Shown piece by piece: positions 2,632-26,052 of a stretch of DNA of 64,000 bases (position 1 is its first letter; each line of letters opens with the position of its first letter). The stretch is from the NCBI GenBank assembly GCA_035292885.1, contig DATDPG010000189.1, forward strand, positions 2,722 to 66,721, given 5' to 3'. The notes under the pieces were generated by a model. That model was not told the DNA's origin. It made no database searches and was given only the letters and a program-made list of their open reading frames with translations. This stretch comes from Bdellovibrionota bacterium. Its GTDB lineage: Bacteria; Bdellovibrionota_G; JALEGL01; DATDPG01. Both the position numbers and the translations under genes were made by a program.

Positions 2632-4119
2632 TCACCGAGATTTATTGTCGGATCCGGGTTCGTCGGCCCGGTTGAAGCAGTTGTCCAATACTTTGTCCAA
2701 CCGCTGTGAATCCCCCTGAAGTCGGGATAGGTGGATCAAAATTTCTTCGATCACACCGCGGATGAGGTCGCACCGGTGTTTGGGAATGGGTTTCAACCGT
2801 TTCGTCTCGATTTCCACGCCCGCGACGCAGATGAAACAGAGATCTTGTGCCCAGCAGGAATGGCACTGCATTTCTTCCTTGTTCATTCCCTCGAATTTCG
2901 ATTGAACTTGCTGAAACTTGGGAGCGTGCGAGAAGTCGGCGTTCGAGATATGCCCCATATCGAATTCAGCTCGATCATTCATCATCTGGCAGGGAAAAAC
3001 CTTACCCGTGGACGAGACCGAAAAGAGATCCTTTCCCAAATTGGCGTAACAAAATTGGTTGGACGGTCTCTTCTCCTTCACGAAAAAAAGGCCGAGGACG
3101 TGCGACACTTGGTAGAGAACGATCGGCCGGTCGCTTCCCAGGGTTTCCAGAGAAAAGCGCGCGGCTTCGCGAAAGGCGGGAATAAGAAAGTCGTAGAATT
3201 CTCGTGTGGCGCTAGAGTCCTCAACCTCCCCCGCTGCGGGACCGATGGTGATCGATCGCGAGCCGAATTCGTCGCGGAAAAATTCGAGAAGAGTTTTGGG
3301 GGTGATCCCCATCTCACGATGTTTGGTCGTATAGGTGCTCTCAATGTTCGGGGAGATTCCCATCTCTTTCAGAAGTCTCAGTCCGGAAGCTATTTTTGAG
3401 TAACTCCCTTTTCCGCTGAGTGTAGGCCGAAGGAGGTCGTTGATCGGTTCCGGGCCGTCGATGGAAACTGTGACGCCAAAACGGTATTTGGCCAACATTT
3501 CAACGTTTTGCGGTGTGAGCAACGTGCCGTTTGTGACCAGCGAGAACGCAGGCTCCGACGCGCCCCTCCTCTTCGATTGCTCCAAGGCATACTCACAAAC
3601 CTTGGGGATGAGAGGCGCCTGCAGCATCGGTTCACCGCCGAAAAAGGTGATCGTTCCGATATGGCCGAACGCTTCGTAGAATCGATCCACCGCTTGAAAC
3701 GCCAGGTCCGGGCCCATCATTCCCGGAGGCGAATTGTAGGTTCCCCCATTTGCAAAACAGTATCCGCAACCCAAGTTGCACGCGTTGCTCACGTTGAGAT
3801 AAAGACTGATCGGCTTTTCTCTCGTCATGGTTTTCAGTTTGATTTGATCCAATCGCGACTGAGTGCGTTCCATTACGGAAATAGCTTCAGACACACTTTC
3901 CTCACTCCCCCCGAGTTCAGCCGCAATTTCAACTGTTTCTTTTCCGGTTTGAAGTTGCTTTGCGATTTCACCGAAGTCCTTGCTCAGTCTTATCAACGAG
4001 GATGCTTCGCGGTGATAGAGAAGATATTCCTCCGCATGTTCGATCAAATGAAAATGGGGAAAGCGGGCTTTCAATGAAATAGCTCCTGGCAAACGTGGAG
4101 AACCATCGATTCCGTGCAA
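2632..4119 (-). CDS. Radical SAM / SPASM-domain peptide maturase with an N-terminal PqqD-like (RRE) region
   Basis: 'CNLGCGYC' fits CxxxCxxC. The C-terminal Cys cluster is 'FPCQMMNDRAEFDMG...CHSCWAQDLCFICVAG'. N-terminal residues ~25-90 ('YLLYHREASSLIRLSKDFGEIAKQLQTGKETVEIAAELGGSEESVSEAISVM') look like a winged-helix PqqD/RRE fold. Confidence 0.85.
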   Translation of the reverse strand: MHGIDGSPRLPGAISLKARFPHFHLIEHAEEYLLYHREASSLIRLSKDFGEIAKQLQTGKETVEIAAELGGSEESVSEAISVMERTQSRLDQIKLKTMTREKPISLYLNVSNACNLGCGYCFANGGTYNSPPGMMGPDLAFQAVDRFYEAFGHIGTITFFGGEPMLQAPLIPKVCEYALEQSKRRGASEPAFSLVTNGTLLTPQNVEMLAKYRFGVTVSIDGPEPINDLLRPTLSGKGSYSKIASGLRLLKEMGISPNIESTYTTKHREMGITPKTLLEFFRDEFGSRSITIGPAAGEVEDSSATREFYDFLIPAFREAARFSLETLGSDRPIVLYQVSHVLGLFFVKEKRPSNQFCYANLGKDLFSVSSTGKVFPCQMMNDRAEFDMGHISNADFSHAPKFQQVQSKFEGMNKEEMQCHSCWAQDLCFICVAGVEIETKRLKPIPKHRCDLIRGVIEEILIHLSRLQGDSQRLDKVLDNCFNRADEPGSDNKSR

Positions 4120-4652
4120 TAAAGCTTCTCTTCCACCTCACCCGTGGCCTTGACCGTCACGCGACACGTCTCTTGCGGGATAAATCGGTGCCCGTACTCC
4201 TTAAGTAGTTTGAGATTTCGTTGTGTAACCCGGCTTTCGTACATTCGCCGGTTCATCGTCGGACCGAAATAAACAGGACTCGTCGCCGCCAAAACGAGGC
4301 CCGCCACCAGACTATCGCAAATTCCATGTGCGCACTTGGCGATCGTGTTGGCCGAGGCGGGATAAACCAACGTCACATCGGCCCAATCGGCGAGGTTGAT
4401 ATGGGGAACGGGAAACTCCTCCGTCGTATCCGTGTGATGTACGAACATCTTCCGACCGATGAGCTTTTCGACAACTTCACGTTCAAAGAAGCCAAGCGCC
4501 GCAGGTGTAGCTGCTACGATCACTTCATGCCGGCCGATCTCAGGATGATAAAGAAGATTGGAGACCAAACGCGGCGTGACCTCAGCCTGGACACACCCCG
4601 TGACCGCCAAAACAACATGGGGCAATCGACCTTTCGGCTTCGCCGAATTCAT
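4071..4652 (-). CDS. HFCD-family flavoprotein (EpiD/LanD/CoaC-like cysteine decarboxylase), copy A
   Basis: Motifs: 'VPHINLADWAD', 'YPASANTIAKCAHGICDSL', 'GPTMNRRMY'. I chose the start at M24 of the tracked ORF because ATG 4652-4650 overlaps the upstream TGA (4651-4649) as ATGA. The resulting length matches paralog B. Confidence 0.8.
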   Translation of the reverse strand: MNSAKPKGRLPHVVLAVTGCVQAEVTPRLVSNLLYHPEIGRHEVIVAATPAALGFFEREVVEKLIGRKMFVHHTDTTEEFPVPHINLADWADVTLVYPASANTIAKCAHGICDSLVAGLVLAATSPVYFGPTMNRRMYESRVTQRNLKLLKEYGHRFIPQETCRVTVKATGEVEEKLYCTESMVLHVCQELFH

Positions 4653-6814
4653 GCGGCTTGAACCTCCGCTGTACGCTTGCCGCGCGGGCGCGTCAGCCGA
4701 ACGATGCCGGCCCGGAACCACTTATAGAGATCTGTCCGGAGATCACGTACTTCAATGCCGCCGGCTTTTTCCACCGCGCTGATCAAGAGGGGATTAGGCC
4801 CCGCACGCCTTAAAATCGTTCCCAGGCGTTCCGAAATCGGAATCCATGCAAAGTCGACGGCGTTAAAGAGAACCCACTGACTGGCGGCTGTGCCGGGAAA
4901 CGACAGGATCCGGGAATCCTCGGAAAGCGAAATCTCCCACTCCTTCAAGTTCTCACCGGCGGAGAAAGCCTCACCACCCGGCAATACGATTTCCATCTCC
5001 GAAAGCGGCTGTTCGAGTTTCTTCCCTTCTCCCTTATCTCGATAGCGTGAAACATATAACAAGTGAGCCGCCCAGCAGCACTCGGACGGGAAAAGACCGG
5101 CTAAAACCGGAAGGTTTTGTCCTAGGCGCGCCATAAGTCTTTCCGTTTCCGCCTGCTGCTCCGGCGTCGGTTCTTGAATATTCACCAGCGAGAATTCCAA
5201 AGCATTGTCCAGATCGTGATCCGCGACCTTTTGGACGGAAGCCACATAGGGATTCCCTCCTTCGGCTATAGGAGCGCCGGGATCAAAATTAAAATCATAG
5301 AGGTGAATATAGTCGCCGGCTTTGGCGTATTCCCATACGGTTTCAAGCGTTTCCAGATATTCTTCCGGTTGCTCTCCAGGGAATGAACGAATCGTGTTCA
5401 GGTGGGCGGTTATCGGTGTGCCGCGCAAATCGCCCAAGAATCTCAAAACGCGTTCCCGGTCGTACCCCTTTTTCATGAGCTTTAAAACGCGGCTGTTGGC
5501 CGATTCCATTCCGACATGGAGAAGCGTGACACCGCCTTGGGCCAAGAGTTCGAGCCTCTCCTTCGTGAAATAGTTCTCGACGCGCGAATGCGCGTACCAT
5601 CGCGTGGAAAGCTTCTCCCGCGCGATCCGTTCGGCGATCTCAACGTGCTGTTTCGGTATGAGAAGTTCGTCGACAAAAAAGAGCTTGGTGGCTCGATAAA
5701 GCTTTTCGTACGTTTTGATGTCGTGAATGACCGAATCGGTGGTACGCGCGCGAAATTGGCCGAAATAGTTTTCATGATGATTGCAAAACGAACAGATGTC
5801 GTAATAACAGCCGCGGGTACAGTACATCGGCAGAACCGGCTCCGGCGTCCAGTAGGACTGTAGCCGAAGTCCCGAAAAGTCGGGCGTCGGCAGCTGATTC
5901 AAATCTTCTATTTTTTGGGAGGAGTTATGCCGGATGCTTTCTCCCTGCCGATAATGAAGATTGGGCACCGTTTTCAATTCACCACCGGTTACAACCGCAT
6001 TCAGGAGAGAAAGCAGTGCTTTTTCTCCTTCGAAGGTCACGACGTAATCAAAGATATCGAATGTCTTGGCGTTACTGCAGATCACGTCCCGGAGCGTTGT
6101 GATAAAGCTTCCTCCGATCACGAACGCTTTGGAAACCGCTGCCTCCCGCATCCATCGCGCCAGCAGGAGTGCGGGCAGCAGTTGCTGTGGATTCGCACAG
6201 GAGAAACCGACGAGGTCAAATGGCGAATTCCTCGTTAAGAACGAGAGGTGCGATTGGAAAAACTCGTGAAGAAGCCGGTATGAATTCTCTTGTCCGGCGA
6301 ATTGAATAAGATCGTCCATGGAAAAGCGCATTCGCGTGCGGTCGATCTCGACCGAAAAACCATTTCCACCGAATGTGTGCCGTATCGGATCCGGCTCGGT
6401 TGAATAACATTCCAATGCAAGTCGAACGATCGCCATCGCGCGGTCATACATACGGGTGTCGTAATAGCGTTTCGGGTCGTGAAAGATGTCAATGGCATCC
6501 TGGATCGCAGACCGGAGCTGCGGCAGCATATACAGAGCTTTAGCCTGGAGCGTTTCCGTCCCTCCCACGGCTTCTTTGGAACGAATCTTTTCTTCTTGTT
6601 TCAGCAAAGTCGCAGGTTCGAGTAAAAAGCCCAGGAAACCAAGATTGCTGTCCCAGACATCCACCTCTCCAACGCCTTGGGCTTTAAGATATCCTGTCAG
6701 GCAAGGGATCCCGAGAGTAGGCATGTCGACATAGGATGCAGGAGGGTACACCAGCAGCACTTTGGCGCCGGCAAGATTATGCGGAGAACCGCCCGTCGGG
6801 TGTGGTTTTTTCAT
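4649..6814 (-). CDS. B12-binding-domain (class B) radical SAM enzyme
   Basis: The N-terminus 'KVLLVYPPASYVDMPTLGIPCLTGYLKAQG' is typical of a cobalamin-binding domain. The Cys cluster is 'YCTRGCYYDICSFC'. Size is 721 aa. It is the first gene of the 6814->2632 operon. Confidence 0.75.
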   Translation of the reverse strand: MKKPHPTGGSPHNLAGAKVLLVYPPASYVDMPTLGIPCLTGYLKAQGVGEVDVWDSNLGFLGFLLEPATLLKQEEKIRSKEAVGGTETLQAKALYMLPQLRSAIQDAIDIFHDPKRYYDTRMYDRAMAIVRLALECYSTEPDPIRHTFGGNGFSVEIDRTRMRFSMDDLIQFAGQENSYRLLHEFFQSHLSFLTRNSPFDLVGFSCANPQQLLPALLLARWMREAAVSKAFVIGGSFITTLRDVICSNAKTFDIFDYVVTFEGEKALLSLLNAVVTGGELKTVPNLHYRQGESIRHNSSQKIEDLNQLPTPDFSGLRLQSYWTPEPVLPMYCTRGCYYDICSFCNHHENYFGQFRARTTDSVIHDIKTYEKLYRATKLFFVDELLIPKQHVEIAERIAREKLSTRWYAHSRVENYFTKERLELLAQGGVTLLHVGMESANSRVLKLMKKGYDRERVLRFLGDLRGTPITAHLNTIRSFPGEQPEEYLETLETVWEYAKAGDYIHLYDFNFDPGAPIAEGGNPYVASVQKVADHDLDNALEFSLVNIQEPTPEQQAETERLMARLGQNLPVLAGLFPSECCWAAHLLYVSRYRDKGEGKKLEQPLSEMEIVLPGGEAFSAGENLKEWEISLSEDSRILSFPGTAASQWVLFNAVDFAWIPISERLGTILRRAGPNPLLISAVEKAGGIEVRDLRTDLYKWFRAGIVRLTRPRGKRTAEVQAA

Positions 6815-7005
6815 CTTTCTTTAAGGGAGGCTTGGGTATTTCCTTCGACGATTCTATTTTAAGATATGAATCCCGCCTCAGTCTAATCATGATCTACGTC
6901 ATGATTTGTGCGGGTACTTGACAACCGAGTAAACAGGAATCAACCGCGATTGCGAAAGCCCCGATCGCAAAAGCCGCCGCACTATAAGCCAATAGAATCA
7001 ATAGG

Positions 7006-7722
7006 TTATTTATTTGGATGGATCGACAGATCCCTAATAATCACATGGAGGGGCTGGGTGAGCACAAAAAGAATAGCTCGCGCCACATCTTCCGGCTGCA
7101 GAAGTTGTTTCGCCAGAGCTTCGCGCTCCTCACGATCGGTCCAATATTCATTCCATAAATCCGTCACCACCGTGCCCGGGCGAAGCGTCGAAACTTTGAT
7201 CCCGTAGGGCTTCACTTCCTTTTGAAGCGCGTCCGAAAATCCGACAACGCCATACTTGCTCGCCGTATACAGCGCCATGTTTTCCTGGGGGACGGTTCCT
7301 GCAATCGACGAAATGTTCACAATGTGGCCGCTTCGCTGGCGTTTCATCAGAGGGAGGACTTCTCTGCAGCAAAGTGTCGTGCCCAAAAGGTTGGTGTCCA
7401 AGATCTCACGGATTCTTTCCACCGGAGTTCCATCGAGCGGAGCGCTCGTTAAAATGCCGGCCGAGTTAACGAGAACGTCGATCCTCCCAAACGTCTCGAA
7501 TGTCTGGTGAATGAGTGCCTGAATATCCTTGGGATTGCGGATGTCGGCGGGGAAGATTCTCGCGTTACGTCCGCAAGCCTTTTGCACCTTTTGAAGCTCC
7601 GCCTTCCGGCGGGCCGCAAGACAAAGCTTCATCCCTTCTTTGGCCAGCAGAATAGCTGTGGCGTTTCCAATGCCGCTGCTGGCTCCTGTCACAATGGCTA
7701 CTTTGAGATTTTTCTCAGCCAT
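7006..7722 (-). CDS. Short-chain dehydrogenase/reductase (SDR)
   Basis: 'VAIVTGASSGIGNATA' (TGxxxGxG), 'NSAG', 'YTASKYGV' (YxxxK). Confidence 0.9.
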   Translation of the reverse strand: MAEKNLKVAIVTGASSGIGNATAILLAKEGMKLCLAARRKAELQKVQKACGRNARIFPADIRNPKDIQALIHQTFETFGRIDVLVNSAGILTSAPLDGTPVERIREILDTNLLGTTLCCREVLPLMKRQRSGHIVNISSIAGTVPQENMALYTASKYGVVGFSDALQKEVKPYGIKVSTLRPGTVVTDLWNEYWTDREEREALAKQLLQPEDVARAILFVLTQPLHVIIRDLSIHPNK

Positions 7723-9293
7723 GTTGCAATGCGATCCGGAATCTCGTCCGACATCTCATACGGGACATCGTACTCAAAGCCTGGGAAATCGCGACATGCT
7801 TTTGTAAAAAAATGATTCAGGCCTTTAAAGCGATGAACCTCATACGGCACATGGGACTTGGACAGCGATGCAGCCATCGCCGCACATTCTTCCACCAAGA
7901 TTTCCGCATCTTCTTCGCCGTGCAACAAGAGAACAGGAATCCGAAGGTTTTTGGCTTCCAAGGCTGGTACGTTCGAAATCTGTTCCGACCAGAGCGCGAG
8001 GCTTTTTCCCATCCATGGAACGTTTTTGATTTTGCCGCCGGTTTTCGAATGGAGCGACCGGACATATTGAAAAATCCGGCGTAGGCGAGCGATCTCGCTT
8101 CGAGTTTCGGCGCCAGGTCTTTTCATCCGTCGAGCCTTAAAGAGAGTCTTATTCAAGATGACTCGATCCAGTGAATGCGCCCGTGCGCCGGCCAGGACAA
8201 CTCCTCGTATTTGCCGACTCTTCAGAGCGGCGGAAATCGCCAAGTTGGCGCCCTCACTAAAGCCAACGAGGATCACGGGTTTTCCTTTCATGCGATCCGC
8301 AACACACTCCGTGGCGGCAATGACATCCTCCAGCAGATTGGTCCGGCTTACCTCTTTCCAATTTCCCCCGCTCTTTCCCACGCCCCGTTTGTCGTACCGA
8401 AAGACACCGATCCCATGGCGGATCAGTTTCCGGCTAAGCTCCCGGAAGGGCCTCGCCTGTATGACATTTAGATCCCTCTCCTCAAACCCCGAACCACTGT
8501 CTCGTGTCTCCTGGCCGCTCCCATGAAGCAGGATCGCGGTGGGAAGCTTCGTTCCTCCTTTGGGAACCTCAAGTGTACCCCAAAGACGGGTTCCATCTTT
8601 CGAGCGAAAAGATAGATTCCTCTCCTTTCCTACAGGATCGTCACTCCGGTAACGAAGAGTTCTCTTCGGTTCTTTTATTTTTCTTATGTGCGCAACAAAG
8701 GGAATAGAGTCAGCGAATCGGCGGATGCGCAATTCAAGTTTCGGAAAAGTAATCGTTCGGGGCCCAAGGTCATCCCACTCGACGTGTCCGGACAGATCTT
8801 CGCGGTTCACTCGAATGTCAGCGGTATCGAAATGGGATCTCTTATCTGCCCGCCGCACAGTCAATTGTTCAATCCGATGATCATCCATGTTGTAGGCCAC
8901 GTGCTCGATCCAGGAATGACGTTTCCCCCTTGGACGGAGGGGAAAGAAAGGAAAAACGAGATGGGTACCTAAAAGCGTAAGGTTGTTCCCGTTCTTAAAA
9001 AAGTGACTCCAAGATTCCCCCAATTTGGACCTAAACAATGCCCAGCCTCCTCGATGGGAACGAATCCATATTCGGTCGGTCCATTTTTTTCGGCCGGCTT
9101 TCTGGATTGTTTCGAGCTGTACGTAACGTAAATGCCGCCCCTCATATTCCGCAAGAGCGTACCGTTTGAACCCAGGTGACTTAACCGTGTTCTCAAAGAT
9201 CGTTCTCCGGCGGCTCGAACGGACTCGAACATACGAACGCCCCACAATTCGGCCATCGAGCGTTTCTAGAGAGAACGAAAAACCGCCGAGCAT
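7698..9293 (-). CDS. Alpha/beta-hydrolase (S9/dienelactone-hydrolase-like) with a ~250-aa N-terminal domain of unknown function
   Basis: The C-terminal half has 'LVGFSEGANLA' (GxSxG-like), 'LLLHGEEDAEI' and 'GLNHFF', giving a Ser-Asp-His arrangement. I recognise nothing in the N-terminal half. Confidence 0.6.
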   Translation of the reverse strand: MLGGFSFSLETLDGRIVGRSYVRVRSSRRRTIFENTVKSPGFKRYALAEYEGRHLRYVQLETIQKAGRKKWTDRIWIRSHRGGWALFRSKLGESWSHFFKNGNNLTLLGTHLVFPFFPLRPRGKRHSWIEHVAYNMDDHRIEQLTVRRADKRSHFDTADIRVNREDLSGHVEWDDLGPRTITFPKLELRIRRFADSIPFVAHIRKIKEPKRTLRYRSDDPVGKERNLSFRSKDGTRLWGTLEVPKGGTKLPTAILLHGSGQETRDSGSGFEERDLNVIQARPFRELSRKLIRHGIGVFRYDKRGVGKSGGNWKEVSRTNLLEDVIAATECVADRMKGKPVILVGFSEGANLAISAALKSRQIRGVVLAGARAHSLDRVILNKTLFKARRMKRPGAETRSEIARLRRIFQYVRSLHSKTGGKIKNVPWMGKSLALWSEQISNVPALEAKNLRIPVLLLHGEEDAEILVEECAAMAASLSKSHVPYEVHRFKGLNHFFTKACRDFPGFEYDVPYEMSDEIPDRIATWLRKISK

Positions 9294-9318
9294 GGGAGAG
9301 ATAGTACCTTACCTTGAA

Positions 9319-10515
9319 TCACGTGACTCGAACGGACCGAGAACGAAAATTGCGGTTCAGCAGAGTTTCGAAAAATTCAATCGGTTTCTGTAACGTCACC
9401 CTTCCCATCCGCCGGGACTCTTGAATGTTCGAAACTAGGTAGCTCTCCACATGGCCGTCGATTTGCCGTAAAAAGCCATTTAGACCCCGAAGAAGGGAAA
9501 CGGTAAAAGTACGGGAATGTTTTATTTCCACCGCAATAAGTGGCTGTGATCGATCTTGTCTGGATTCCAAGACAAGATCCACTTCAAACCCCTCCTTGGT
9601 CCGGAAATAATATACCCGTCGCAATTCTGTATGTGCAGCCCATCGGTAAATGGCTGCGACGAAAGACGCCTCCAGCATGATGCCTGGATCTTGTGGGAGC
9701 CCGCCTGCAAGTTCCCAGGCCATCCAAGGTTCTGTGAAATAGATTTTCGGAGTCTTGATAATCCGGTTGGAGCGATTTGAAAAATACGGTTCCAATAAAA
9801 ACACCTGGAAACTGGCTTCCAAAATGGAAATCCACCTCTTCACCGTGTTGGGAGCAACCGACACATCGCGGGCAATATCCGAAAAATTGAGCATCTGACC
9901 GTTCCGCAAGCTCAAAATACGTAAGAAACGGGTAAAATCCCGCAGGTCCCCCACCTCGGCGATTTGGTGCAGATCTCGTTCAATATAGGTTTGGATGTAG
10001 CCCTTCAACCAGCTTTCTCGTTTCTTGGGGAATAGAAAAGGCTCGGGGTACGAGCAAAATTGAAACCATCCGTCTTTGGTAAAACGCTTTTTATGTTTCC
10101 TCCACTCCAGAACGTCGAAAGGAAGCAAAGGCAAGTACACCGCTCGTCCCGCGAGACTCTCTCCGATGCGCGCATGCAACAATAGATTTTGTGAACCAGT
10201 TAGAAAAAAGCGGCCCGGGCGTCGGTCTTTGTCGACGGCGGCTTTAAGATACGGGAAAAGATCCGGCGCGGCTTGAACTTCATCCAGGATGATCGGAGAT
10301 TCCGTATCCAAAATGCTGTTGGGATCCGTGAGTACCGTGGCCTGAATTGCGGGGTCGTCCAAAGAGTAATAGGGAATGTTCGGATACAGATGCTTGAGCA
10401 ACGACGTCTTACCGGACTGCCGGGGCCCCACGACCGCCACGATCGGGTGGCGACGTGCGAGGGTTCGAATTCGCCCTTCGATCGTCCGAGATACCCACAT
10501 ACGACCAATTTGCAT
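9319..10515 (-). CDS. AAA-family ATPase with DUF4143-type C-terminal domain
   Basis: Walker A 'VVGPRQSGKTSLL', 'FFLTGSQN', and overall architecture typical of AAA_14/DUF4143 proteins. Confidence 0.75.
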   Translation of the reverse strand: MQIGRMWVSRTIEGRIRTLARRHPIVAVVGPRQSGKTSLLKHLYPNIPYYSLDDPAIQATVLTDPNSILDTESPIILDEVQAAPDLFPYLKAAVDKDRRPGRFFLTGSQNLLLHARIGESLAGRAVYLPLLPFDVLEWRKHKKRFTKDGWFQFCSYPEPFLFPKKRESWLKGYIQTYIERDLHQIAEVGDLRDFTRFLRILSLRNGQMLNFSDIARDVSVAPNTVKRWISILEASFQVFLLEPYFSNRSNRIIKTPKIYFTEPWMAWELAGGLPQDPGIMLEASFVAAIYRWAAHTELRRVYYFRTKEGFEVDLVLESRQDRSQPLIAVEIKHSRTFTVSLLRGLNGFLRQIDGHVESYLVSNIQESRRMGRVTLQKPIEFFETLLNRNFRSRSVRVT

Positions 10516-10625
10516 TCTTACTGCAAATTAGTCAACATCCATTCTTGTACGGGGAAAATGGGCGGTAGACAGATTTTACGGCCGGACACCGTAGAAGGTA
10601 GTAAGATCGGTTTCAATTTATTACG

Positions 10626-11210
10626 GTGAAGAAATTGCGCCAAAGGAAACGTCATGTCCTGCTTATGGTGACAGGCTGCGTCCAAGCCGAACTTACACCG
10701 AAACTCGTTTCCGACTTGAAATCCTTCCCCGGGATCGGCCGGCCGGAAGTCATTGTCGTAGCCACCCGGCCCGCGCTTAAATTTTTCAACACGGCAAAAA
10801 TTGAACGACTTACGGAGCATAAGGTTTTTGTTGACCACGAGGACGGCACTGTGGAATTTCCGGTCCCGCACATAAATCTTCCCGAATGGGCGGATGCCAT
10901 CTTTGTTTATCCCGCTTCAGCGAACACGATTGCTAAATGTGCCCACGGACTGGCGGACAGCCTCGCTTCCAATATTGTGTTGGCCGCAAAACGCCCCGTA
11001 TTTTTTGGCCCTACGATGAATAAGGCTATGTACGAAAATCCTGTGACTCAACACAATCTAAGACTCCTCAAAAAGGCGGGATATGTTCTTTTGCCTCGAA
11101 AAATGTGCCGAGTCACGGTGAAAGCCACGGGGCAGGTGGAAGAAAGGCTTTTCTGCCCGGAGAGCATGGTGCTGGCCATGTGCTTAAAGCTATTCCGACA
11201 CAGTCCATGA
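10626..11210 (+). CDS. HFCD-family flavoprotein (EpiD/LanD/CoaC-like cysteine decarboxylase), copy B
   Basis: GTG start. Motifs 'VPHINLPEWAD', 'YPASANTIAKCAHGLADSL', 'GPTMNKAMY', 'CRVTVKATGQVEE'. It is collinear with copy A along its whole length. Confidence 0.8.
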   Translation: MKKLRQRKRHVLLMVTGCVQAELTPKLVSDLKSFPGIGRPEVIVVATRPALKFFNTAKIERLTEHKVFVDHEDGTVEFPVPHINLPEWADAIFVYPASANTIAKCAHGLADSLASNIVLAAKRPVFFGPTMNKAMYENPVTQHNLRLLKKAGYVLLPRKMCRVTVKATGQVEERLFCPESMVLAMCLKLFRHSP

Positions 11211-11290
11211 AAAGGCCCTATGCATACAATCCGCAGCGTTGATTGTCACATCTGCTGTTCTTCATCGTAAATATATATAGTAATCATCCG

Positions 11291-14677: not shown

Positions 14678-14725
14678 TCAAACACATTTGCTTGGGTTTG
14701 TGGATGAGGCGAAGGAAATGAGCTT

Positions 14726-15502
14726 GTGAATATCCTTCGTCGTCCTAATTTCCCGGAAGCCATACGCACCTTCTTCCATGACCATGAGGAATGGGAGCGA
14801 AGTGGTGAGCTGCTTCGACGGAAATATTGGAAAACACACGATGCGATAGAGGAAAAAAAGCGGAGTTTCGCTTGGATTCAAGGAAAGAGCGGGTTGCCCT
14901 GGCTGGAGTTATCCATCAAATTTCCTTTCGAGGAGATGCTGGAAGAAGCGAGGCGTTTGCGTCATAGATTCGTATCACACAGATCAGGCGGGAGAAGAGG
15001 ATACCTTGACGGAAATCGTGGATGGACGGCGTTAACGATTCATGGCCTGGGTTCCGAGATTACCGGTAATGCCCATAACTATGGCTATGAAGATGACAAG
15101 GCAGCACCTCACAAGTGGACGGAAATCGCCGACATGTGTCCAGTCACCACACGATTTCTCAAAAGAGTGTATCCTTGCGACAAATTTTATCGAGTTCGAT
15201 TCATGGTGATGGCGCCCCAAGGGTTCATATTTCCGCACACCGACCGCGAGAATTCCTACCTGGGCGAAGTCAATTTTGCTCTCAATCATCCAACAGGATG
15301 CTTTCTAAAGATGAAAGGGGCGGGTTTTGTCCCGTTCCGAGCAGGAAAGGCCTTTATTCTCGATGTCTCGAACATCCACGCCGTGGTGAATTTGTCAGAT
15401 GAAGAACGGTACCACATGATCGTTCATGGTGAAACGATCCGAAATGAAAAATGGGGAAGGCTGATCGAGAAGAGCTATCGCGACTTTATGCGACGTAAGT
15501 AA
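14726..15502 (+). CDS. Aspartyl/asparaginyl beta-hydroxylase-family oxygenase-like protein
   Basis: 'GFIFPHTDRE...', 'AFILDVSNIHAVVNLSDEERYHMIVHG' resembles the Asp_Arg_Hydrox pattern (pH.D ... fD.s..H.v.N.s...R). Confidence 0.65.
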   Translation: MNILRRPNFPEAIRTFFHDHEEWERSGELLRRKYWKTHDAIEEKKRSFAWIQGKSGLPWLELSIKFPFEEMLEEARRLRHRFVSHRSGGRRGYLDGNRGWTALTIHGLGSEITGNAHNYGYEDDKAAPHKWTEIADMCPVTTRFLKRVYPCDKFYRVRFMVMAPQGFIFPHTDRENSYLGEVNFALNHPTGCFLKMKGAGFVPFRAGKAFILDVSNIHAVVNLSDEERYHMIVHGETIRNEKWGRLIEKSYRDFMRRK

Positions 15503-15511
15503 GGACCGGTT

Positions 15512-17680
15512 CTAAAATAAGTAGTTCGTCCATATGAAGTAAACGGCTCCCAGCCAAAAAGGTTGAAACAATACGTATATGAGCGGTTTCATTCCAGCGT
15601 CAATTGTGGCGGTCACACGGGTTCCAAGCCGAAGTTCCGAAGTGTCGGGGCATCTTATCTGACCCTTAATCAACACAGTAGACTCGGGTGGGGACATACC
15701 CATAAACGCCCATTCCTTGGATTCGCGTGGTACGTATGTAGGAGAAAGATGAATTAAACGTCCATTGCAGGGTATTCCGGTCACAACCAGCGACACCCGA
15801 AATGGTAATCCCATTCTAAGTTCCGAAGCCTTTTTCTCGGAAATCAACAATTCGATTCCCAACTCTCCAGTAGCCAATAGAACGAGGGGATCCCCCTTAC
15901 GCACGGAATGTCCAGCGACGTCATGAAGCATCGGCGTAATCACAATCCCTCGATCCGGGCTTCGAATCATAAGATCCGATCCCCCTTTTGAAATTCGGAA
16001 GAGCGGCGCACCAACCCCCACATGTGCACCCTCTTCCACGTATACCTCTTCAATCGAACCCCCACCCGTTGATCGCACGAGTGTGGACTGCAGAGGGAGA
16101 ATCGTACCCTCCGCCGGAATTCTATAGGGAATGGGAGCCATAAGGGCTGCGCCTAGCAGGAGCATGCACACGATGGGTTTCCAAGATATTCTAAACCGGT
16201 AGAGAGATCGCAAGAAATGGGCGCGATTTGTCTGTGGTACTCTTCGTAGAAGGTAGCCGATCATTCGCGATATCAAGGCTAGAAGCATGAGCAGATAAAG
16301 AATTTGCGGGAAAAAAATTGAATATGCCCATGCGATAGAGACAAGCCATAAAGTGAGCAGAAGTTCGCACGTTAGAAAGAAGATCGTGGAGAAATAAAAC
16401 AGCCAGAACCAGCGAATCTCCCGCGATGTTGGAACGGATGTTGTTTGGGCTTTGTTCCCCGTAATCGCCTGAAGGATTCTTGAATTGCAGTACCGGAAGC
16501 TTCGCGAATAGAGATTATCGATGTTGAGCAGATCGGACAAAATGAAATAGCCGTCCAGTTTGAACACGGGGATAATGCTGAACAAAATATCAATCCCATT
16601 GGCGAGACAAAAAAGAAGCCCAAGCAATTGGATGTAGGACCCGGAGGGCGCCACACTCCAAACAATCATTCCGCAGCTCCAGAGTACGAGTTGAGATAAA
16701 ACGCCGGCGAGCATGACGAGGATTCTATTTCGTTGTCGGAAGAAGTAGCTGTCTGAAACGTCCGCGAAGAAGGCCGGAAGAAATCCAAGAAAAAGAATCA
16801 CCCCCATACGCCGAACCTTCCCTCCGAACTTGTAACAGGTTAGTGCATGGCCGAATTCGTGGGCGACAACAGAGAAACGATTAACAAAAGTCGCCAACAC
16901 GATGTGGTTGAGCATTTGATATATCGGTTTGTTAAATCCCCTGATCCAGTAATCGCTGTGGACCCAAAACAAAACCTGTGCGACGAAAAACAGTCCGGCC
17001 ATCAAAGTCAGCGTGAAACGGGAAAACAGCAGGTTGATAAGCGGCTTAAAACGGCCGAAAATTTCCTGGGGATCAAACAGATTGAACTGTGTGGTGAGAG
17101 CCGGCAGATGGCGCTGTCCCCCGTCCGCCGTGGAAGTTTGTGTTCGCAAAATGGCCTCTGTGGCGGTGTCTTTAGCCCAAAGGTGATCGCGTTCTAACTC
17201 GTTCCCAAGATTCGATCTTTTGGTGATTTCGATGAGCCCAACGGGATCCGCATTATGGAGTCGACAAAAAAGGTCTGACCAGAAGTTCACTTCGATCGAG
17301 GTGGGATGCTTCATGCCCCAGCGACGACGCAAAAAGCGAGCAAACATGTTTTTGAGAGACGAAGTGATTGCGAGCCGCTGAGACGGTGAAAGCTTGAGAT
17401 GGTGATCTGGTTCCAGGAGTCCTTTTCTATCCATATTTACGAGAAACCCTTCGATGGAATCGGATTCCATTTCGACGCCGTATTTATTCGAAAGAAATTC
17501 GCTTGCCTCAACGGCAGTGGCCGGGCACCGTTGGAAGAATCGGAGAAGCCCATATTGGAAGAAGGACAGTGACCAGTAGGTACCGAGAATCGGGTCTGCG
17601 GCAATGTGACTTAGTTTTCCGCGAGAATATGTGCTTCGGATCGAAATATCCGATCGAACTTTAAAGATCCTATACGACAA
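15512..17680 (-). CDS. Polytopic M50-type (site-2-protease-like) zinc metalloprotease fused to a HlyD-like periplasmic adaptor domain (YydH-like 'peptide zinc metalloprotease')
   Basis: 'VVAHEFGHALT' (HExxH) and 'KLDGYFILSDLLNIDNLY' lie in a multi-TM region. The C-terminus has a barrel-sandwich/lipoyl-like segment 'GGSIEEVYVEEGAHVGVGAPLFRI'. The N-terminal ~95 aa is a soluble PqqD-like region. Confidence 0.75.
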   Translation of the reverse strand: MSYRIFKVRSDISIRSTYSRGKLSHIAADPILGTYWSLSFFQYGLLRFFQRCPATAVEASEFLSNKYGVEMESDSIEGFLVNMDRKGLLEPDHHLKLSPSQRLAITSSLKNMFARFLRRRWGMKHPTSIEVNFWSDLFCRLHNADPVGLIEITKRSNLGNELERDHLWAKDTATEAILRTQTSTADGGQRHLPALTTQFNLFDPQEIFGRFKPLINLLFSRFTLTLMAGLFFVAQVLFWVHSDYWIRGFNKPIYQMLNHIVLATFVNRFSVVAHEFGHALTCYKFGGKVRRMGVILFLGFLPAFFADVSDSYFFRQRNRILVMLAGVLSQLVLWSCGMIVWSVAPSGSYIQLLGLLFCLANGIDILFSIIPVFKLDGYFILSDLLNIDNLYSRSFRYCNSRILQAITGNKAQTTSVPTSREIRWFWLFYFSTIFFLTCELLLTLWLVSIAWAYSIFFPQILYLLMLLALISRMIGYLLRRVPQTNRAHFLRSLYRFRISWKPIVCMLLLGAALMAPIPYRIPAEGTILPLQSTLVRSTGGGSIEEVYVEEGAHVGVGAPLFRISKGGSDLMIRSPDRGIVITPMLHDVAGHSVRKGDPLVLLATGELGIELLISEKKASELRMGLPFRVSLVVTGIPCNGRLIHLSPTYVPRESKEWAFMGMSPPESTVLIKGQIRCPDTSELRLGTRVTATIDAGMKPLIYVLFQPFWLGAVYFIWTNYLF

Positions 17681-18740
17681 GATTCACGCGTATGTAGCGA
17701 GTGATCTGCCGCAGGAGAATCGTCCCTGCCGTTCGCCATCCGATGGCGATATGCCCGATTCCGGTCATCCCCGGTTTAAGTCCGGGATGTGCATTATCGC
17801 AGTCGGCATATACGCGGAAAAATCGTTCTGGCGGTTCAGGTAAGTCCTCCTTCGGAGTTTCCGCCATAGGCGCGATCCTGGTCAGGGTCGCCGTAAAGGT
17901 CTCTTCCGGAATCGCCTGGACCTTGAACTCAATCAAGTCGCCTTCGTGGATGAGGGCAACGTCCTTTTCGCTGACATAGATTCGAATCATCATTTTTCGC
18001 AGGTCGGATACTTCCATGATTAGATTGCCGGGTTCGACCTGCTGCCCGATCAAACGCGAAATATCGGAGGATACGACGACGCCATTTATGGGCGAGCGTA
18101 CGAGCGGATAAGCTTCTTTGGTACGGCCGCCATGTAAACGAACAAGGGGCTGGTCAATAGTGACCGCGTCTCCTTCCTGAACAAAAACCTTGTCGATGGT
18201 GCCTAAGAGAAAGGTACGAACAAAGAATCTACGGGATGGCTCGACGAGCAGGTTGCCACCTACGTGTAACTTCCATGGGAAGACCAACAAGATGACGGTG
18301 GCAAGCGCAAATTTCCCGATTTTCGAATTCACAACACGAACCAGGAGACGCGAATCGGTGGCATGGCTGCGAATCTTTTTAAGCTGCTCAAGCCCTTCGA
18401 CGGCTCTGCCCGGCATGAACGATAAAGTATTCTTGTGTTCGGCTTCATCGAGGCCCAGAGTTGAAAGAGGGTCCTCCAGAAAACCGAGAGTTTCGGATTT
18501 CTGTAGAAAATCGAGCACCTGATCTCGATCGATCTGAAGCCCATGTTCGTCACGTAATTTAATACACACGGTTTCGATATCCCATTCTCCGGATTCAAAT
18601 TGTTCCGCTACCAAGTAACCGGTGGAATCGAGACGTAATGTGGCTCCCGTACGGGAATCATTAAGTTGAAAATGGGAGGGATCAAGTTGCTGGATTTGAA
18701 GATCGGATCGAAGCTTGGGTTGTCGCCTTGCGGTAGTCAT
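17670..18740 (-). CDS. HlyD-family membrane-fusion/adaptor protein with an N-terminal PqqD-like domain
   Basis: It has one TM ('FALATVILLVFPW') and lipoyl-like hairpin motifs 'IDKVFVQEGDAVTIDQPLVRL' and 'VVSSDISRLIGQQVEPGNLIMEV'. It overlaps the downstream M50 gene by 11 nt. Confidence 0.7.
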   Translation of the reverse strand: MTTARRQPKLRSDLQIQQLDPSHFQLNDSRTGATLRLDSTGYLVAEQFESGEWDIETVCIKLRDEHGLQIDRDQVLDFLQKSETLGFLEDPLSTLGLDEAEHKNTLSFMPGRAVEGLEQLKKIRSHATDSRLLVRVVNSKIGKFALATVILLVFPWKLHVGGNLLVEPSRRFFVRTFLLGTIDKVFVQEGDAVTIDQPLVRLHGGRTKEAYPLVRSPINGVVVSSDISRLIGQQVEPGNLIMEVSDLRKMMIRIYVSEKDVALIHEGDLIEFKVQAIPEETFTATLTRIAPMAETPKEDLPEPPERFFRVYADCDNAHPGLKPGMTGIGHIAIGWRTAGTILLRQITRYIRVNLVV

Positions 18741-18799
18741 CTGAAAAAGTCCTTGATTTCTAGAGCGTTAGGTTAACACAGCTGTCGTCTATGGGAAGC

Positions 18800-18868
18800 T
18801 TGACACGACCTTAGTGGTTTTGTTAGCTTATGTATGTAACTTTTGTGATTAATTGTTACTAAAGTTAC
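18800..18868 (+). promoter_or_regulatory. Candidate promoter/operator in the divergent control region upstream of the small peptide ORF
   Basis: Exact TTGACA at 18800-18805, with a weak -10 candidate TAGCTT at 18824-18829. Perfect 8-bp inverted repeat GTAACTTT (18836-18843) / AAAGTTAC (18861-18868) flanking an ATTAAT palindrome. Confidence 0.3.
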
Positions 18869-19011
18869 GTGCCTACTAGATCAATAGTTTGGTAGGTCTT
18901 CGCCGAAACGGCTAACCGGCAGCGAAAGCGCGGGGCGCAAAGGTGGTGACCTAAAGGCTGGCATGTGTGTTGGCCGATGGTTGATTATCTGTCGAAACGA
19001 AGGAGTCTAAA

Positions 19012-19128
19012 ATGAAGAAAGAAACAAAGAAAGTGGAAGTCAAGAAGGTTAAATTGGATCTCGAGATCCTGGAACTTGAGGCCAAGATTGCTCCCAAGCT
19101 TACGCAGTCTTCTGGCGCAGAGTGCTAA
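19012..19128 (+). CDS. Unannotated 38-aa peptide, MKKETKKVEVKKVKLDLEILELEAKIAPKLTQSSGAEC; candidate RiPP precursor with C-terminal Cys
   Basis: ATG at 19012 is preceded by AAGGAG (19000-19005, 6-nt spacer). TAA is at 19126-19128, followed by an intrinsic terminator. The N-terminus is charged, helical and leader-like, and the tail is small-residue-rich ending in the only Cys. Tailoring and export genes surround it. Confidence 0.6.
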   Translation: MKKETKKVEVKKVKLDLEILELEAKIAPKLTQSSGAEC

Positions 19129-19152
19129 TTTAGCCTTCCTAACGGCTTAGAG

Positions 19153-19179
19153 AAAAAGGCCCCCAAGCGGGGCCTTTTT
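19153..19179 (+). terminator. Rho-independent (potentially bidirectional) terminator
   Basis: AAAAA (19153-57), GGCCCC (19158-63), loop CAAGC, GGGGCC (19169-74), TTTTT (19175-79). It starts 25 nt after the peptide stop codon. Confidence 0.8.
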
Positions 19180-19673
19180 CTTGTGGTGCGCCCATCATGG
19201 GCAATTGTCCAGTAATTCCCAGAGAATCCAGTTTGATAAATGTGCGCGTATCGGTTCTAAATCTTCCATCAAGATCTTCAGAGTTGTATTTGAGCGACCG
19301 TTGCAGCAAAGTCCAAACAGTGGGCTAGAGGCCGTAAAAGCGTATAGAGAACAGCAATTCCCGTAAAGTGAAGCGACCCGGACGAGGCTCTTGGAACTGA
19401 TTATCTCGGTATTCTTCAAGCAAACGGTCTAACCCACCATATTTGTTTTCTCAGAAATTCCATCAAATTCACCCGCGATTCGAATAGACTTATTGGTCCC
19501 TCGATCTCTTCCTACCCTAACAACCCTATGAAGATGAAAGACCTTACAAAATAGTAGTGCGGGAGGAGGATTTCCCGACATTCAGAGAAGTAGCGTATAA
19601 AGTTTCGGCTAAGATCAACATCACGGTTTCCAAAATCGTAACCGGTTCCCTTTGTGGATAGGGCTCAAAATAG

Positions 19674-22016: not shown

Positions 22017-22157
22017 CGGTCGACGTGGTGAAGAAACTAGATATCCACGGGCTTACGCCCGGGGATCTTCTAAGGTGTATTAGAGGAGATTATCTCCAAA
22101 ATCCTGGATAAAATGGATAAATTAGAAGTAGTTGAGTAACCTTACGTTCTATCATCT

Positions 22158-23408
22158 GTGTTGAACCTTCCTTTTCAAGTTTACTTTGCCTTCCCCGACG
22201 GTCTTCTTCGTTATAATTGTCCGGAATGTGGTTTCCAATGTTGCAAGGGCGCTGGTTTCGGTGTCACCGCTAAAGAAATGACCAAACTGGAAGTCTTGTA
22301 CCCTACGCTTAAATATTTTGCTCAACCAGCTACCAGACGAGCCGTAACAGGCGTGCCACTCATCAATCTGAAGCCGAAATGTTTTTTCTTACAAGACTCT
22401 GGTTTTTGTGACATACAAGCCAAACACGGCCGCGATTTCAAACCTATAGTTTGTAAAACATTCCCGGCAAACGCCTATTTCTTTTCGAATGATATTCTTG
22501 TGGTGGACGTTAACTTTCTTTGTCCGCTTAAGATTTCTAGCTCTCCAGAAAATGATGCGGTTTTGTATTATGAGGACATTTTGAAAGATATTATGGTTGC
22601 AGCCGATTACATTAAAGGCGCAGGAACAGTAACAGCTAGGAGGCCCGAACAACCCCCACAAGTGAGAGAACTCACAAAGCAAATCATTCAGCATGAAACT
22701 TGGTCTCGAGACTCTTTTCGTAGGATAGAAACGACGGACTTGTTTGATGTGCTTGCCACCTGGGAATTAACGTCTCTACAAGAGAATGACAGTGAACCTG
22801 AAGTGCCACCGCCACATTTGATCACAGAAAAAAAACAAGAGCTTGAGTTGTTCCGACGGCAAATAGTAATGTTTATCGGCGCTGAAGATTACCTTGCGAC
22901 ACGAAGCACTATCGACGATATGGCATTAATTGTACTGTCTTCGTCGATCCGGATGTCAATCTTGAAACGATTCCCCCACATTGTGTACGAAACGGAATTT
23001 TTGCCATCTATCTCACGAATATTTTGTGCTGCGTCAACCCTTGTTCAACTTGCGTCAATAACGCAAGGCACTCCCTGCTCTCTGCAAGCAGTTTCTACAG
23101 TAACGTCCTCGTTTCTCGCTGCAATTTTCCTGCTTGGACATTTAGATCATGTGCCAACGATTCCAGCCCCAAGAGAGGGAGAAAAGATGACCATTGACGC
23201 AGCACTGTCCTACGAAGGTAACATAAAAAGATTCTTTCAATTCGTATATGAGCAGAACGACGAACTAAATCTAACGTTGAGAGAGATTGTTGAGCAGCAT
23301 GCAAAAGAAGATCGATTTGACTCGTTGATGTTTCTTAAGAGCTTATCCGGGAACGCAATAAGCCGTATGAAGTTTCTACCAAAGGGCCCAACGCATTCGA
23401 TATCGTAA
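22158..23408 (+). CDS. YkgJ/UPF0153-like Cys-cluster (CxxCxxCC) protein with a long extension of unknown function
   Basis: 'YNCPECGFQCCKGAG' matches the CxxCxxCC zinc/iron-chelating motif, and further Cys residues occur at 'KCFFLQDSGFCD' and 'PIVCKTFP'. GTG start. Confidence 0.5.
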   Translation: MLNLPFQVYFAFPDGLLRYNCPECGFQCCKGAGFGVTAKEMTKLEVLYPTLKYFAQPATRRAVTGVPLINLKPKCFFLQDSGFCDIQAKHGRDFKPIVCKTFPANAYFFSNDILVVDVNFLCPLKISSSPENDAVLYYEDILKDIMVAADYIKGAGTVTARRPEQPPQVRELTKQIIQHETWSRDSFRRIETTDLFDVLATWELTSLQENDSEPEVPPPHLITEKKQELELFRRQIVMFIGAEDYLATRSTIDDMALIVLSSSIRMSILKRFPHIVYETEFLPSISRIFCAASTLVQLASITQGTPCSLQAVSTVTSSFLAAIFLLGHLDHVPTIPAPREGEKMTIDAALSYEGNIKRFFQFVYEQNDELNLTLREIVEQHAKEDRFDSLMFLKSLSGNAISRMKFLPKGPTHSIS

Positions 23409-26016: not shown

Positions 26017-26052
26017 GTTACATTTTTTTTGTAAGTTCAGTAAACTTTTGAA

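Follow-up and report, generated by a model that had tools for sequence, protein, structure and literature searches.

A 38-residue peptide gene behind a putative c-di-GMP-I riboswitch, and a rare radical SAM/HFCD gene trio near it, point to a probable new RiPP family in a Bdellovibrionota bacterium

Do two radical S-adenosylmethionine (rSAM) enzymes, two HFCD flavoproteins, two oxygenases and a pair of HlyD-type export proteins, all encoded around one very small open reading frame (ORF), act together on the peptide that this ORF encodes? The question is raised by positions 2632 to 23408 of a 64,000-nucleotide stretch of DNA (hereafter the window) from a Bdellovibrionota bacterium (assembly GCA_035292885.1, contig DATDPG010000189.1). 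The initial annotation had described this part of the window as a single composite of about 21 kb, belonging to no known class of ribosomally synthesized peptide with post-translational modifications (RiPP). ORFs were mapped over the first 27 kb of the window, and Pfam and NCBIfam searches with each protein found every gene type that it listed, each in its place, the TP_methylase-like and CxxCxxCC calls being sub-threshold. Our analysis points to a probable new RiPP family. On balance, we favor reading the region as an undescribed RiPP-type pathway around a 38-residue peptide ending in GAEC, put together from two modules, each of which is found on its own in other loci. Module 1 is a trio of genes for a B12-binding rSAM enzyme, an HFCD flavoprotein and an rSAM/SPASM enzyme; module 2 comprises the peptide gene and the protease, export and oxygenase genes near it. 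That the two modules are linked is something we infer. Coordinates are collected in Table 1.

The small ORF encodes MKKETKKVEVKKVKLDLEILELEAKIAPKLTQSSGAEC and is preceded, at a distance of 7 nt, by an AAGGAG ribosome-binding site. A profile search grouped the window peptide with two independent metagenome relatives: P0254, from a JGI metagenome, with the probable true start MKKNERKQAPKKVKLDLEILELEAKIAPKVGQNGFKLEGAEC, and P0255 (MEKKASKKVKLDLEILELEAKIAPSSDGQAGGGFKPTGAEC), from Logan runs SRR12313478-80. The precursors of the three loci are 38-42 residues long. An 18-residue leader segment, KKVKLDLEILELEAKIAP, is identical in all of them, and the C-terminal tetrapeptide GAEC is invariant (3/3), while the stretch between leader and GAEC, 6-13 residues, differs in both length and sequence. 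The window precursor was provisionally split into a leader, MKKETKKVEVKKVKLDLEILELEAKIAP, and a core, KLTQSSGAEC. Within the 54 nt that code for the shared leader, any two loci differ at 8-11 positions, and all of these differences are synonymous, which indicates strong purifying selection on the protein. Two independent homologues and synonymous-only leader differences are more than a chance ORF would show, and the ORF is thus a genuine gene. It had been proposed as the gene of a RiPP-like peptide ending in Cys; the homologues, the Shine-Dalgarno sequence and the terminator described below bear this out. A joint-profile HMMER search of 1.84 billion cluster representatives returned 16 clusters at E <= 0.001, in which the GAEC type was represented by the window peptide alone, indicating that the family is rare. 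Three GAEC loci were found in all. The shared leader, the GAEC tag, the trio and the sister peptides introduced below all escape the curated NCBIfam models that were searched.

The peptide gene is followed directly by an intrinsic terminator, none of 200 shuffled sequences being as stable as its GC-rich hairpin, and a comparable GC hairpin lies 3' of the peptide gene in the metagenome contig L090. This position of the terminator indicates that the peptide gene is monocistronic. When the three peptide loci were aligned, approximately 110 nt of conserved non-coding sequence appeared 5' of the start codon. This sequence matches the c-di-GMP-I (GEMM-I) riboswitch aptamer (Rfam RF01051) over its full length in each locus. 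In the window, the match scored 34.2 bits, against a gathering score of 35 (E 9.7e-5 in a 1-kb search and 0.006 in the whole window), and it was the only one at E <= 0.01 across the 64 kb. The contigs L089, L090 and L091 gave 37.5 bits, which is over the gathering score (L090 2886-2985), and L092 gave 28.4 bits (368-463), in each case before the homologous peptide gene. RNAalifold folded the three sequences together into the two hairpins of GEMM, seven pairs being compensatory, and the GNRA tetraloop hairpin and the conserved core ACGCAAAG are present in the aptamers. In the outer helix, the GAAGG within the ribosome-binding site is base-paired to the 5' flank; this overlap suggests translational control. 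The position that we take to discriminate between c-di-GMP (G) and cGAMP (A) is a G in all three loci, which is a lead only. Thus, the conserved unit here is monocistronic, running from a putative c-di-GMP-I aptamer through Shine-Dalgarno sequence and ORF to the terminator, and the terminator implies that the riboswitch would govern the peptide gene alone. Set beside the RF01051 model, all three loci align over the full length and one scores over gathering; the loci differ from known riboswitches of this class in the downstream gene, a RiPP-type precursor of 38-42 residues. A literature search found no description tying this riboswitch class to a RiPP precursor. The riboswitch was absent from the initial annotation. 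A search with RF01051 found no such element in loci that carry the trio alone or in sister-family loci.

PilZ-domain genes, encoding c-di-GMP receptors, were seen at L005 4159-5745, L007 2260-4449 and L089 117-554, and in the window at 47398-48174. They adjoin two trio loci and the second GAEC locus, and any bearing on the riboswitch is thematic at most. PilZ was considered as a conserved neighbor of the trio (L005, L007) and rejected, the PilZ proteins being mutually dissimilar.

The genes next to the peptide gene recur with it. Divergent from the peptide gene are HlyD2, a HlyD-type periplasmic adaptor, and a protein in which an RRE-like domain (RiPP recognition element), an M50-type protease and a HlyD part are fused. 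The N-terminal 110 residues of HlyD2 matched PqqD at E 0.007, and its N-terminal domain matched that of the M50::HlyD protein (hhalign 91%). The AlphaFold model of the M50::HlyD protein (pLDDT 79) displays three parts, namely a beta3-alpha3 domain at the N-terminus, a membrane core of helices and, at the C-terminus, a beta-rich HlyD part, and the protein is probably both leader peptidase and export component. Indeed, a distant M50::HlyD locus carries an OEP outer-membrane partner, which fits an export role. On the far side of these genes lie those for a JmjC/cupin oxygenase, with weak PDB similarity to the protein hydroxylases NO66 and MINA, and for an AspH-like oxygenase, for which a PDB sequence search gave no match.

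The P0255 locus was assembled as a composite of about 12 kb from the overlapping contigs L089 and L090, and ends 4.3 kb beyond the peptide. Genes for an 855-residue M50 protein and a 472-residue HlyD protein are divergent from the peptide gene; after the latter come genes for an AspH-like protein, a JmjC protein, a third 2-oxoglutarate (2OG) oxygenase and a class-I methyltransferase, then an incomplete ORF. By tblastn, identities between the window and L089/L090 were 40-43% for HlyD2, 30-32% for M50::HlyD (from residue 1), 51-55% for AspH and 43% for JmjC. The HlyD2 counterpart occupies the same position as in the window, the AspH relative adjoins the peptide in L089, L090 and L091, and the JmjC-then-AspH order was reported to be the same in L090 as in the window. 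To the left of the M50 gene in L089, unrelated signalling genes mark the border. Thus, the peptide, PqqD-HlyD, PqqD-M50::HlyD, JmjC and AspH-like genes recur together in one independent locus. Module 2 is nevertheless rearranged there, since in the window the JmjC and AspH genes lie beyond the M50 and HlyD genes; with a gene order that differs between loci, the association is not simple synteny. We consider it very likely that module 2, with its peptide, is a real RiPP-like system. Family sizes from word-index searches are lower bounds: such a search with M50::HlyD returned only relatives of at most 31% identity and missed the L089 orthologue. A metagenome scan seeded with AspH found, apart from the species of the window itself, only three contigs of low GC, L094, L095 and L096 (33-39% GC), in which AspH-like relatives of 38-49% identity stand without other cluster genes or the peptide, so the AspH family also occurs in unrelated contexts. 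Searching a plasmid collection with AspH gave no match.

In the window, the genes of the trio run into one another at their start and stop codons, if gene lengths are taken as called, and the trio is one translationally coupled operon. The SPASM protein contains the CxxxCxxC motif and seven conserved SPASM cysteines. In its AlphaFold model (pLDDT 90.9), the chain begins with a beta-beta-beta-alpha-alpha-alpha domain, and among PDB structures the model is best matched by CteB, a thioether synthase that bears an RRE (5WHY; TM 0.77/0.87, 457 of 480 columns), the alignment spanning the RRE, core and SPASM domains of the model. The RRE fusion that had been proposed for this enzyme is supported by both observations. 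The B12-rSAM enzyme had as its top NCBIfam match the RiPP C-methyltransferase TIGR03975 (6e-42; 143.9 bits against a cut-off of 281.85), and its last ~100 residues matched the N-terminal RRE of the SPASM protein (hhalign 91%, E 1e-6). The presence of peptide-binding-type domains in both rSAM enzymes argues for a peptide substrate. Counting the N-termini of HlyD2 and of the M50 protein, the region encodes up to four RRE-type domains.

The trio is very rare. A search of 5.8 billion clustered proteins gave the SPASM protein no more than five close homologues (46-50% identity), the next match being at 33%. The B12-rSAM gene accompanies the SPASM gene in all five contigs, with 45-48% identity in L001 and L005 and 35% in an incomplete fragment in L007. 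An HFCD gene accompanies both in four of the five, its product being 62% identical where the DNA was at hand (L001 and L005), and L007 ends just upstream. The flanks differ entirely from contig to contig (MFS, PilZ, cNMP-binding, cytochromes), and none of the window's remaining genes was found in these contigs. No credible candidate precursor was found beside the trio in the window (6815-7005), L001, L005 or L007. A scan of a genome collection with a generic CxxxCxxC pattern, taken as seed from the SPASM alignment, listed at least 80 ordinary SPASM maturases, mostly from Clostridia, none of those listed having the trio or the leader. An ABC_ATPase/MRB1590-type gene at 61161-62933 (+) of the window has a strong homologue on the trio contig L007 (4473-6161; 366 bits by tblastx), a hint that trio carriers are phylogenetically related.

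A second HFCD, HFCD_B, is encoded outside the trio and is a 62% identical paralogue of HFCD_A. Its gene is the first of four on the plus strand (HFCD_B-DUF5916-JmjC-AspH) that are spaced by 33, 73 and 49 bp, and we infer from spacing only that this run is an operon. The closest PDB relative of the HFCDs is human phosphopantothenoylcysteine (PPC) decarboxylase, and the LanD enzymes EpiD, MrsD and CypD are relatives too. In alignments to these four, the HFCDs keep the catalytic His and the PASANT and PxMNxxM motifs, and the alignments stop before the substrate clamp. The clamp Cys lets CoaC reduce the enethiol, and LanD enzymes are without it. No CGD-type clamp Cys motif was found in the C-terminal sequences of HFCD_A, HFCD_B and their orthologues; one nearby Cys is not conserved in orthologues. 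From HFCDs that lack a CoaC-type clamp Cys, an enethiol product is expected. NCBIfam scores were 116-119 bits for CoaBC (TIGR00521, cut-off 219.7), 91-94 bits for CoaC (TIGR02113, cut-off 261.4) and 18-36 bits for the CypD model (cut-off 215). Judged by these scores and motifs, the HFCDs are not CoaC or CoaBC housekeeping enzymes.

Does the trio, then, act on the GAEC peptide? The two modules meet only in the window, 9 kb apart. With six trio loci and three GAEC loci in all, chance juxtaposition within 9 kb is unlikely. In addition, HFCD_B places an HFCD in an apparent operon with the very enzymes that travel with the peptide. HFCD peptidyl-Cys decarboxylases require a free C-terminal Cys, and the invariant C-terminal Cys of the family therefore fits HFCD chemistry.

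A further link is provided by a sister family of 51-63-residue peptides, with a leader containing LELEVVEFTDLEQLEESIAP and a core GGxCSGGxGSGCxCxVP. Their leader consensus, ...LDLEVVEF(T/S)DLEQLEE(S/A)IAP..., is homologous to the GAEC-family leader (LDLE-V/I-x-E...LE-x-x-IAP), and clusters with this type of leader, sister family included, number about 16 among the 1.84 billion representatives. The sister peptides are encoded directly beside the SPASM enzymes P0007, P0010 and P0011, often with B12-rSAM and MacB too. Sister and trio SPASM proteins are reciprocal best out-of-clade matches (31-33% identity, ~220 bits), and their RREs match at 98% in hhalign. When the two families are aligned jointly, the GAEC Cys falls in the same column as the first Cys of the sister cores. 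Sister loci thus share with the window a homologous leader, the nearest SPASM clade, a PqqD-like M50 HExxH peptidase and often a B12-rSAM enzyme. They differ in the longer leader and the three Cys of the core, and are without HFCD, JmjC, AspH, HlyD pair and riboswitch. The sister family itself appears to be undescribed.

The following pathway could unite the two modules. The level of c-di-GMP would gate translation of the precursor, whose invariant leader would dock on the RRE domains, the stretch LDLEILELEAKIAP (helix or strand) being the part that an RRE would accommodate. HFCD_A, HFCD_B or both would act as LanD enzymes do and convert Cys38, with its free C-terminus, into an amino-enethiol by oxidative decarboxylation, and the SPASM enzyme would join the enethiol sulfur to a core carbon in a sacti/ranthi-type thioether. 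Since no dehydratase is encoded nearby, a ring resembling aminovinyl-cysteine (AviCys) would arise by radical chemistry. The B12-rSAM enzyme might C-methylate, and JmjC and AspH might hydroxylate core residues, with Glu37 and the core Lys as candidates. Finally, the M50 domain would cut off the leader near IAP, and the two HlyD proteins would pass the product outward. The individual steps of decarboxylation, thioether formation, methylation and hydroxylation are proposed by analogy and we hold them tentatively, with the odds against their being right in full. Slightly less doubtful, yet well short of an even chance, is the broader idea that a second-messenger riboswitch gates a RiPP whose HFCD-decarboxylated C-terminal Cys is captured by an rSAM/SPASM enzyme, giving either a dehydratase-independent AviCys-like ring or a small molecule or cofactor derived from Glu-Cys.

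Several observations weigh against joining the modules. No locus outside this organism carries both, and their functional union thus relies on sequence data from one organism. The full 10 kb on either side of the trio in L001 contain no GAEC-type ORF, module-2 gene or riboswitch, and the ~12 kb of L089/L090 contain no homologue of the HFCD, rSAM, TP_methylase-like or CxxCxxCC genes. Sister loci always carry a PqqD-M50 peptidase as well, so leader homology could track the protease and not the SPASM enzyme. The core is variable, so that no conserved ring partner residue is evident. Operon structure was deduced from gene spacing, and a consensus scan for promoters and terminators over 2-22 kb stayed at chance level and missed the terminator of the peptide gene. 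The riboswitch score in the window, moreover, is 0.8 bit under gathering. The window might then hold two unrelated adjacent systems, module 2 making a hydroxylated, leader-cleaved and exported peptide, and the trio, perhaps with HFCD_B, modifying some other peptide or protein encoded elsewhere. This is what one would expect from five further trio contigs with no module-2 gene, GAEC peptide or riboswitch nearby, from a second GAEC locus with no rSAM or HFCD gene, and from the unrelated-looking SDR, hydrolase, DUF4143 and DUF5916 genes that part the modules, of which DUF4143 has a second copy that suggests passengers. It would leave as coincidences the 9 kb between two extremely rare modules, the close paralogue of the trio HFCD in the JmjC/AspH run, a C-terminal Cys of just the kind that a peptidyl-Cys decarboxylase needs, and the SPASM clade nearest the trio's adjoining peptides with a homologous leader; nor is there another candidate precursor near the trio in the window. 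We regard this explanation as a serious one that is nonetheless unlikely, and judge it somewhat more probable than not that the trio acts on the GAEC peptide.

A joint pathway could also end differently, with the peptide as a disposable scaffold and a small molecule from its C-terminal Glu-Cys or Ala-Glu-Cys as product, by the logic of PQQ, mycofactocin or pearlins. HFCD would decarboxylate the Cys, the SPASM enzyme would cross-link Glu to the Cys-derived unit, the B12-rSAM enzyme would methylate, and the M50 protease or the S9/S33-like hydrolase would release the product. Precedent exists, as RRE-bearing SPASM enzymes make C-terminal-residue products: PqqE acts on Glu-Tyr, and MftC on Val-Tyr with decarboxylation. 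Such a product would suit a precursor whose invariance is confined to the leader and the final four residues, the middle being variable, and genes for an SDR and a peptidase-like alpha/beta-hydrolase are indeed found just upstream of the trio, in the same orientation. Neither gene, however, accompanies the trio in its other loci; the M50 protease and the pair of HlyD adaptors, with an OEP gene in a related locus, point to peptide export as in bacteriocin-type systems, and the sister cores are Cys-rich, resembling classical cross-linked peptides. The scaffold reading is accordingly rather improbable, more so than that of two separate systems. Least credible by far is that nothing here concerns peptide modification, the HFCDs being CoaC-type, the rSAM enzymes maturing a cofactor or an enzyme, and the small ORF occurring by chance. 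CoaBC is the top NCBIfam match of both HFCDs, and human PPC decarboxylase their top PDB match; these CoaBC and CoaC scores, however, lie far under their cut-offs, the clamp Cys motif is absent, there are two HFCD paralogues, one of them within a three-gene rSAM operon, and both rSAM enzymes have RRE-like domains. The ORF, for its part, has homologues under purifying selection, a Shine-Dalgarno sequence, a terminator and a conserved riboswitch. The initial annotation was thus right not to count the rSAM and HFCD genes as housekeeping: all NCBIfam equivalog scores were far under cut-off.

Returning to the favored reading of one RiPP-type pathway, its components were compared with those of known systems. 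With sacti- and ranthipeptide maturases (CteB, PapB, SCIFF ScfB), the SPASM enzyme shares the N-terminal RRE, the CxxxCxxC core and the seven-Cys SPASM domain, and the substrates share a core with Cys; here the Cys is single and at the extreme C-terminus, and the enzyme is translationally coupled to an HFCD and a B12-rSAM enzyme. PapB was the top NCBIfam match, at 155 bits against a cut-off of 340, and all 68 NCBIfam matches to curated maturase families (PapB, SCIFF, CcpM, Nif11-rSAM and others) were under cut-off. An HFCD and a precursor ending in Cys are shared with AviCys pathways (EpiD/MrsD, CypD linaridins, TvaF thioamitides, MicD lipolanthines), whereas the partners here are radical SAM enzymes. 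No Ser/Thr dehydratase (LanB, LanM, LanKC or kinase/lyase) was found in 2632-23408 or in any related locus, and a literature search found no description of an HFCD paired with an rSAM/SPASM enzyme. The M50 protein is close to the HExxH proteases of daptides and epipeptides, which are presumed to be RiPP leader peptidases: its top matches were MpaP-like NF041824 (1.4e-46) and YydH/LiaK NF058609 (2.4e-14). The daptide protease model gave 159 bits against a cut-off of 300, and the window protein differs in its fused N-terminal RRE-like and C-terminal HlyD parts and in its second, RRE-HlyD, partner. Daptide tailoring genes (aminotransferase, oxidative decarboxylase) were not seen in Pfam scans of the cluster, and the precursor ends in Cys, not Thr. 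RiPP B12-rSAM C-methyltransferases of the proteusin and bottromycin type share the B12-binding domain followed by a radical SAM domain; the window enzyme carries its own C-terminal RRE-like domain. No description of this leader, of JmjC in such a RiPP or of this enzyme combination was found in the literature. As far as sequence comparison can tell, no described RiPP class matches, in agreement with the initial annotation, for whose enzyme combination neither an NCBIfam model nor a published description was found.

Table 1. Features of the region and of related loci. Coordinates refer to the window unless a contig is named.
Feature	Position	Strand	Evidence and remarks
Precursor peptide ORF, 38 residues, C-terminal Cys	19012-19128	+	
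Putative c-di-GMP-I (GEMM-I) riboswitch aptamer, 5' untranslated region of precursor gene	18900-18996	+	Rfam RF01051, full-length match
Intrinsic terminator, GC-rich hairpin and T-run	19150-19182	+	fold energy -30 kcal/mol, z -3.9
HlyD2, HlyD-type periplasmic adaptor with N-terminal PqqD/RRE-like domain	17670-18740	-	Pfam HlyD_D23 9e-16
RRE-like::M50-type HExxH intramembrane metalloprotease::HlyD	15512-17680	-	NCBIfam daptide_HExxH, below cut-off; HEFGH at residue 274
Asp/Asn-beta-hydroxylase-family (AspH-like) Fe(II)/2OG oxygenase	14726-15502	+	Pfam Asp_Arg_Hydrox 2e-15; H171-x-D173
JmjC/cupin Fe(II)/2OG oxygenase	13571-14677	+	Pfam JmjC_2 and Cupin_8, 1.2e-6 each; H158-x-D160...H224
HFCD_B flavoprotein	10626-11210	+	Pfam Flavoprotein 6.4e-25
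B12-binding radical SAM enzyme with C-terminal RRE-like domain (trio gene 1)	4649-6814	-	Pfam Radical_SAM 1.1e-16
HFCD_A flavoprotein (trio gene 2)	4071-4721	-	Pfam Flavoprotein 6.5e-25; likely start 4652
RRE-fused radical SAM/SPASM peptide maturase (trio gene 3)	2632-4119	-	Radical_SAM 2.7e-21, SPASM 7.8e-5; likely start 4074
Sister peptides	L008 3179-3633; L099 10001-10192; L101 4241-4429 and 7402-7590		adjoin rSAM/SPASM and PqqD-M50 peptidase
Short-chain dehydrogenase/reductase (SDR)	7006-7722	-	Pfam; upstream of trio, same strand; membership unproven
Alpha/beta-hydrolase (S9/S33-like)	7698-9293	-	Pfam; upstream of trio, same strand; membership unproven
DUF4143 ATPase	9319-10515	-	Pfam
CBM9/DUF5916 protein	11243-13498	+	Pfam; between HFCD_B and JmjC
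TP_methylase-like protein, 780 residues	19674-22016	+	Pfam 24.7 bits against 27.8, residues 525-623 only
CxxCxxCC/FliB-like protein, 416 residues	22158-23408	+	weak, 20.6 bits against 23

The single composite of about 21 kb that the initial annotation had drawn was retained in part. Each module is conserved elsewhere; the composite, however, splits in two, and the halves never occur together outside this organism. Likewise, the gene-neighborhood comparison it had called for gave a divided answer, module-2 genes co-occurring with the peptide but the rSAM/HFCD trio occurring without it. The remaining genes (SDR, hydrolase, DUF4143, DUF5916, TP_methylase-like and CxxCxxCC) have no counterpart in any related locus, and there is no support for counting them as cluster members. 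DUF4143 had been named as a possible passenger, and this was strengthened by a second AAA_14/DUF4143 ATPase gene at 45100-46437 (-): two such genes in 64 kb fit scattered passengers. The N-terminus of the DUF5916 protein, MRMWSFLVFVLFFHSIALA, resembles a signal peptide, and an outer-membrane role in export is possible. The terminator of the peptide gene and 545 bp lie between it and the TP_methylase-like and CxxCxxCC genes. The suggestion of borosin-type N-methylation by a TP-methylase fold found no support: the Pfam match is sub-threshold, a sequence search of the PDB gave no match, L089/L090 have no such gene, and in the window it is located past the terminator.

The left border of the region is firm, being set by convergent capsule genes, CpsB and Wzz (capsule genes 56-2603). 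The right border is either the terminator of the peptide gene or the end of the CxxCxxCC gene at 23408, beyond which lie convergent sulfate-activation genes. This block (23423-29659; GC 0.43-0.45) encodes a fused ATP-sulfurylase/APS kinase, a CysQ-like phosphatase, TauE, Sulfotransfer_4 and a GT8 glycosyltransferase, and its supply of PAPS (3'-phosphoadenosine-5'-phosphosulfate) for sulfation more likely serves a sulfated polysaccharide than the peptide. A PmbA/TldD-type metallopeptidase pair is encoded at 29830-32621 (-); such pairs process some RiPPs, for example microcin B17. At 36234-38813 (-), and absent from the initial annotation, is a gene for an 859-residue protein with a Lant_dehydr_N (glutamylation) domain (PF04738, 3e-21) and neither elimination domain nor NCBIfam match, perhaps a LanB that is split, or else a PEARL-like enzyme. 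The gene lies 13 kb past the right border and 17 kb from the peptide, with no obvious precursor nearby. It was considered as the missing dehydratase and rejected, being conserved in no related locus and separated from the region by unrelated genes. Further on, 48216-58236 (-) is an array of large FG-GAP/ASPIC(UnbV)/TPR repeat proteins, unrelated to the cluster.

The kinds of component are already known; what would be new here is their combination in, and the regulation of, a RiPP pathway. If the modules cooperate, radical SAM enzymes would take the place of a dehydratase as partners of a LanD-type decarboxylase, which predicts undescribed sulfur chemistry at the C-terminus of the peptide. For genome mining, the shared leader, the C-terminal GAEC tag, the Cys-rich sister family and the rare three-gene marker operon provide handles. 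If true, the broader idea of a riboswitch-gated RiPP whose decarboxylated Cys is captured by an rSAM/SPASM enzyme would amount to a new RiPP class in which aminovinyl-thioether chemistry is reached by a new route, and to the first case of a RiPP precursor controlled by a c-di-GMP riboswitch. Independently of the link between the modules, three loci have a putative c-di-GMP-I riboswitch directly before a precursor-peptide gene, which would tie production of a secreted modified peptide to c-di-GMP, the messenger of the switch between motile and sessile life.

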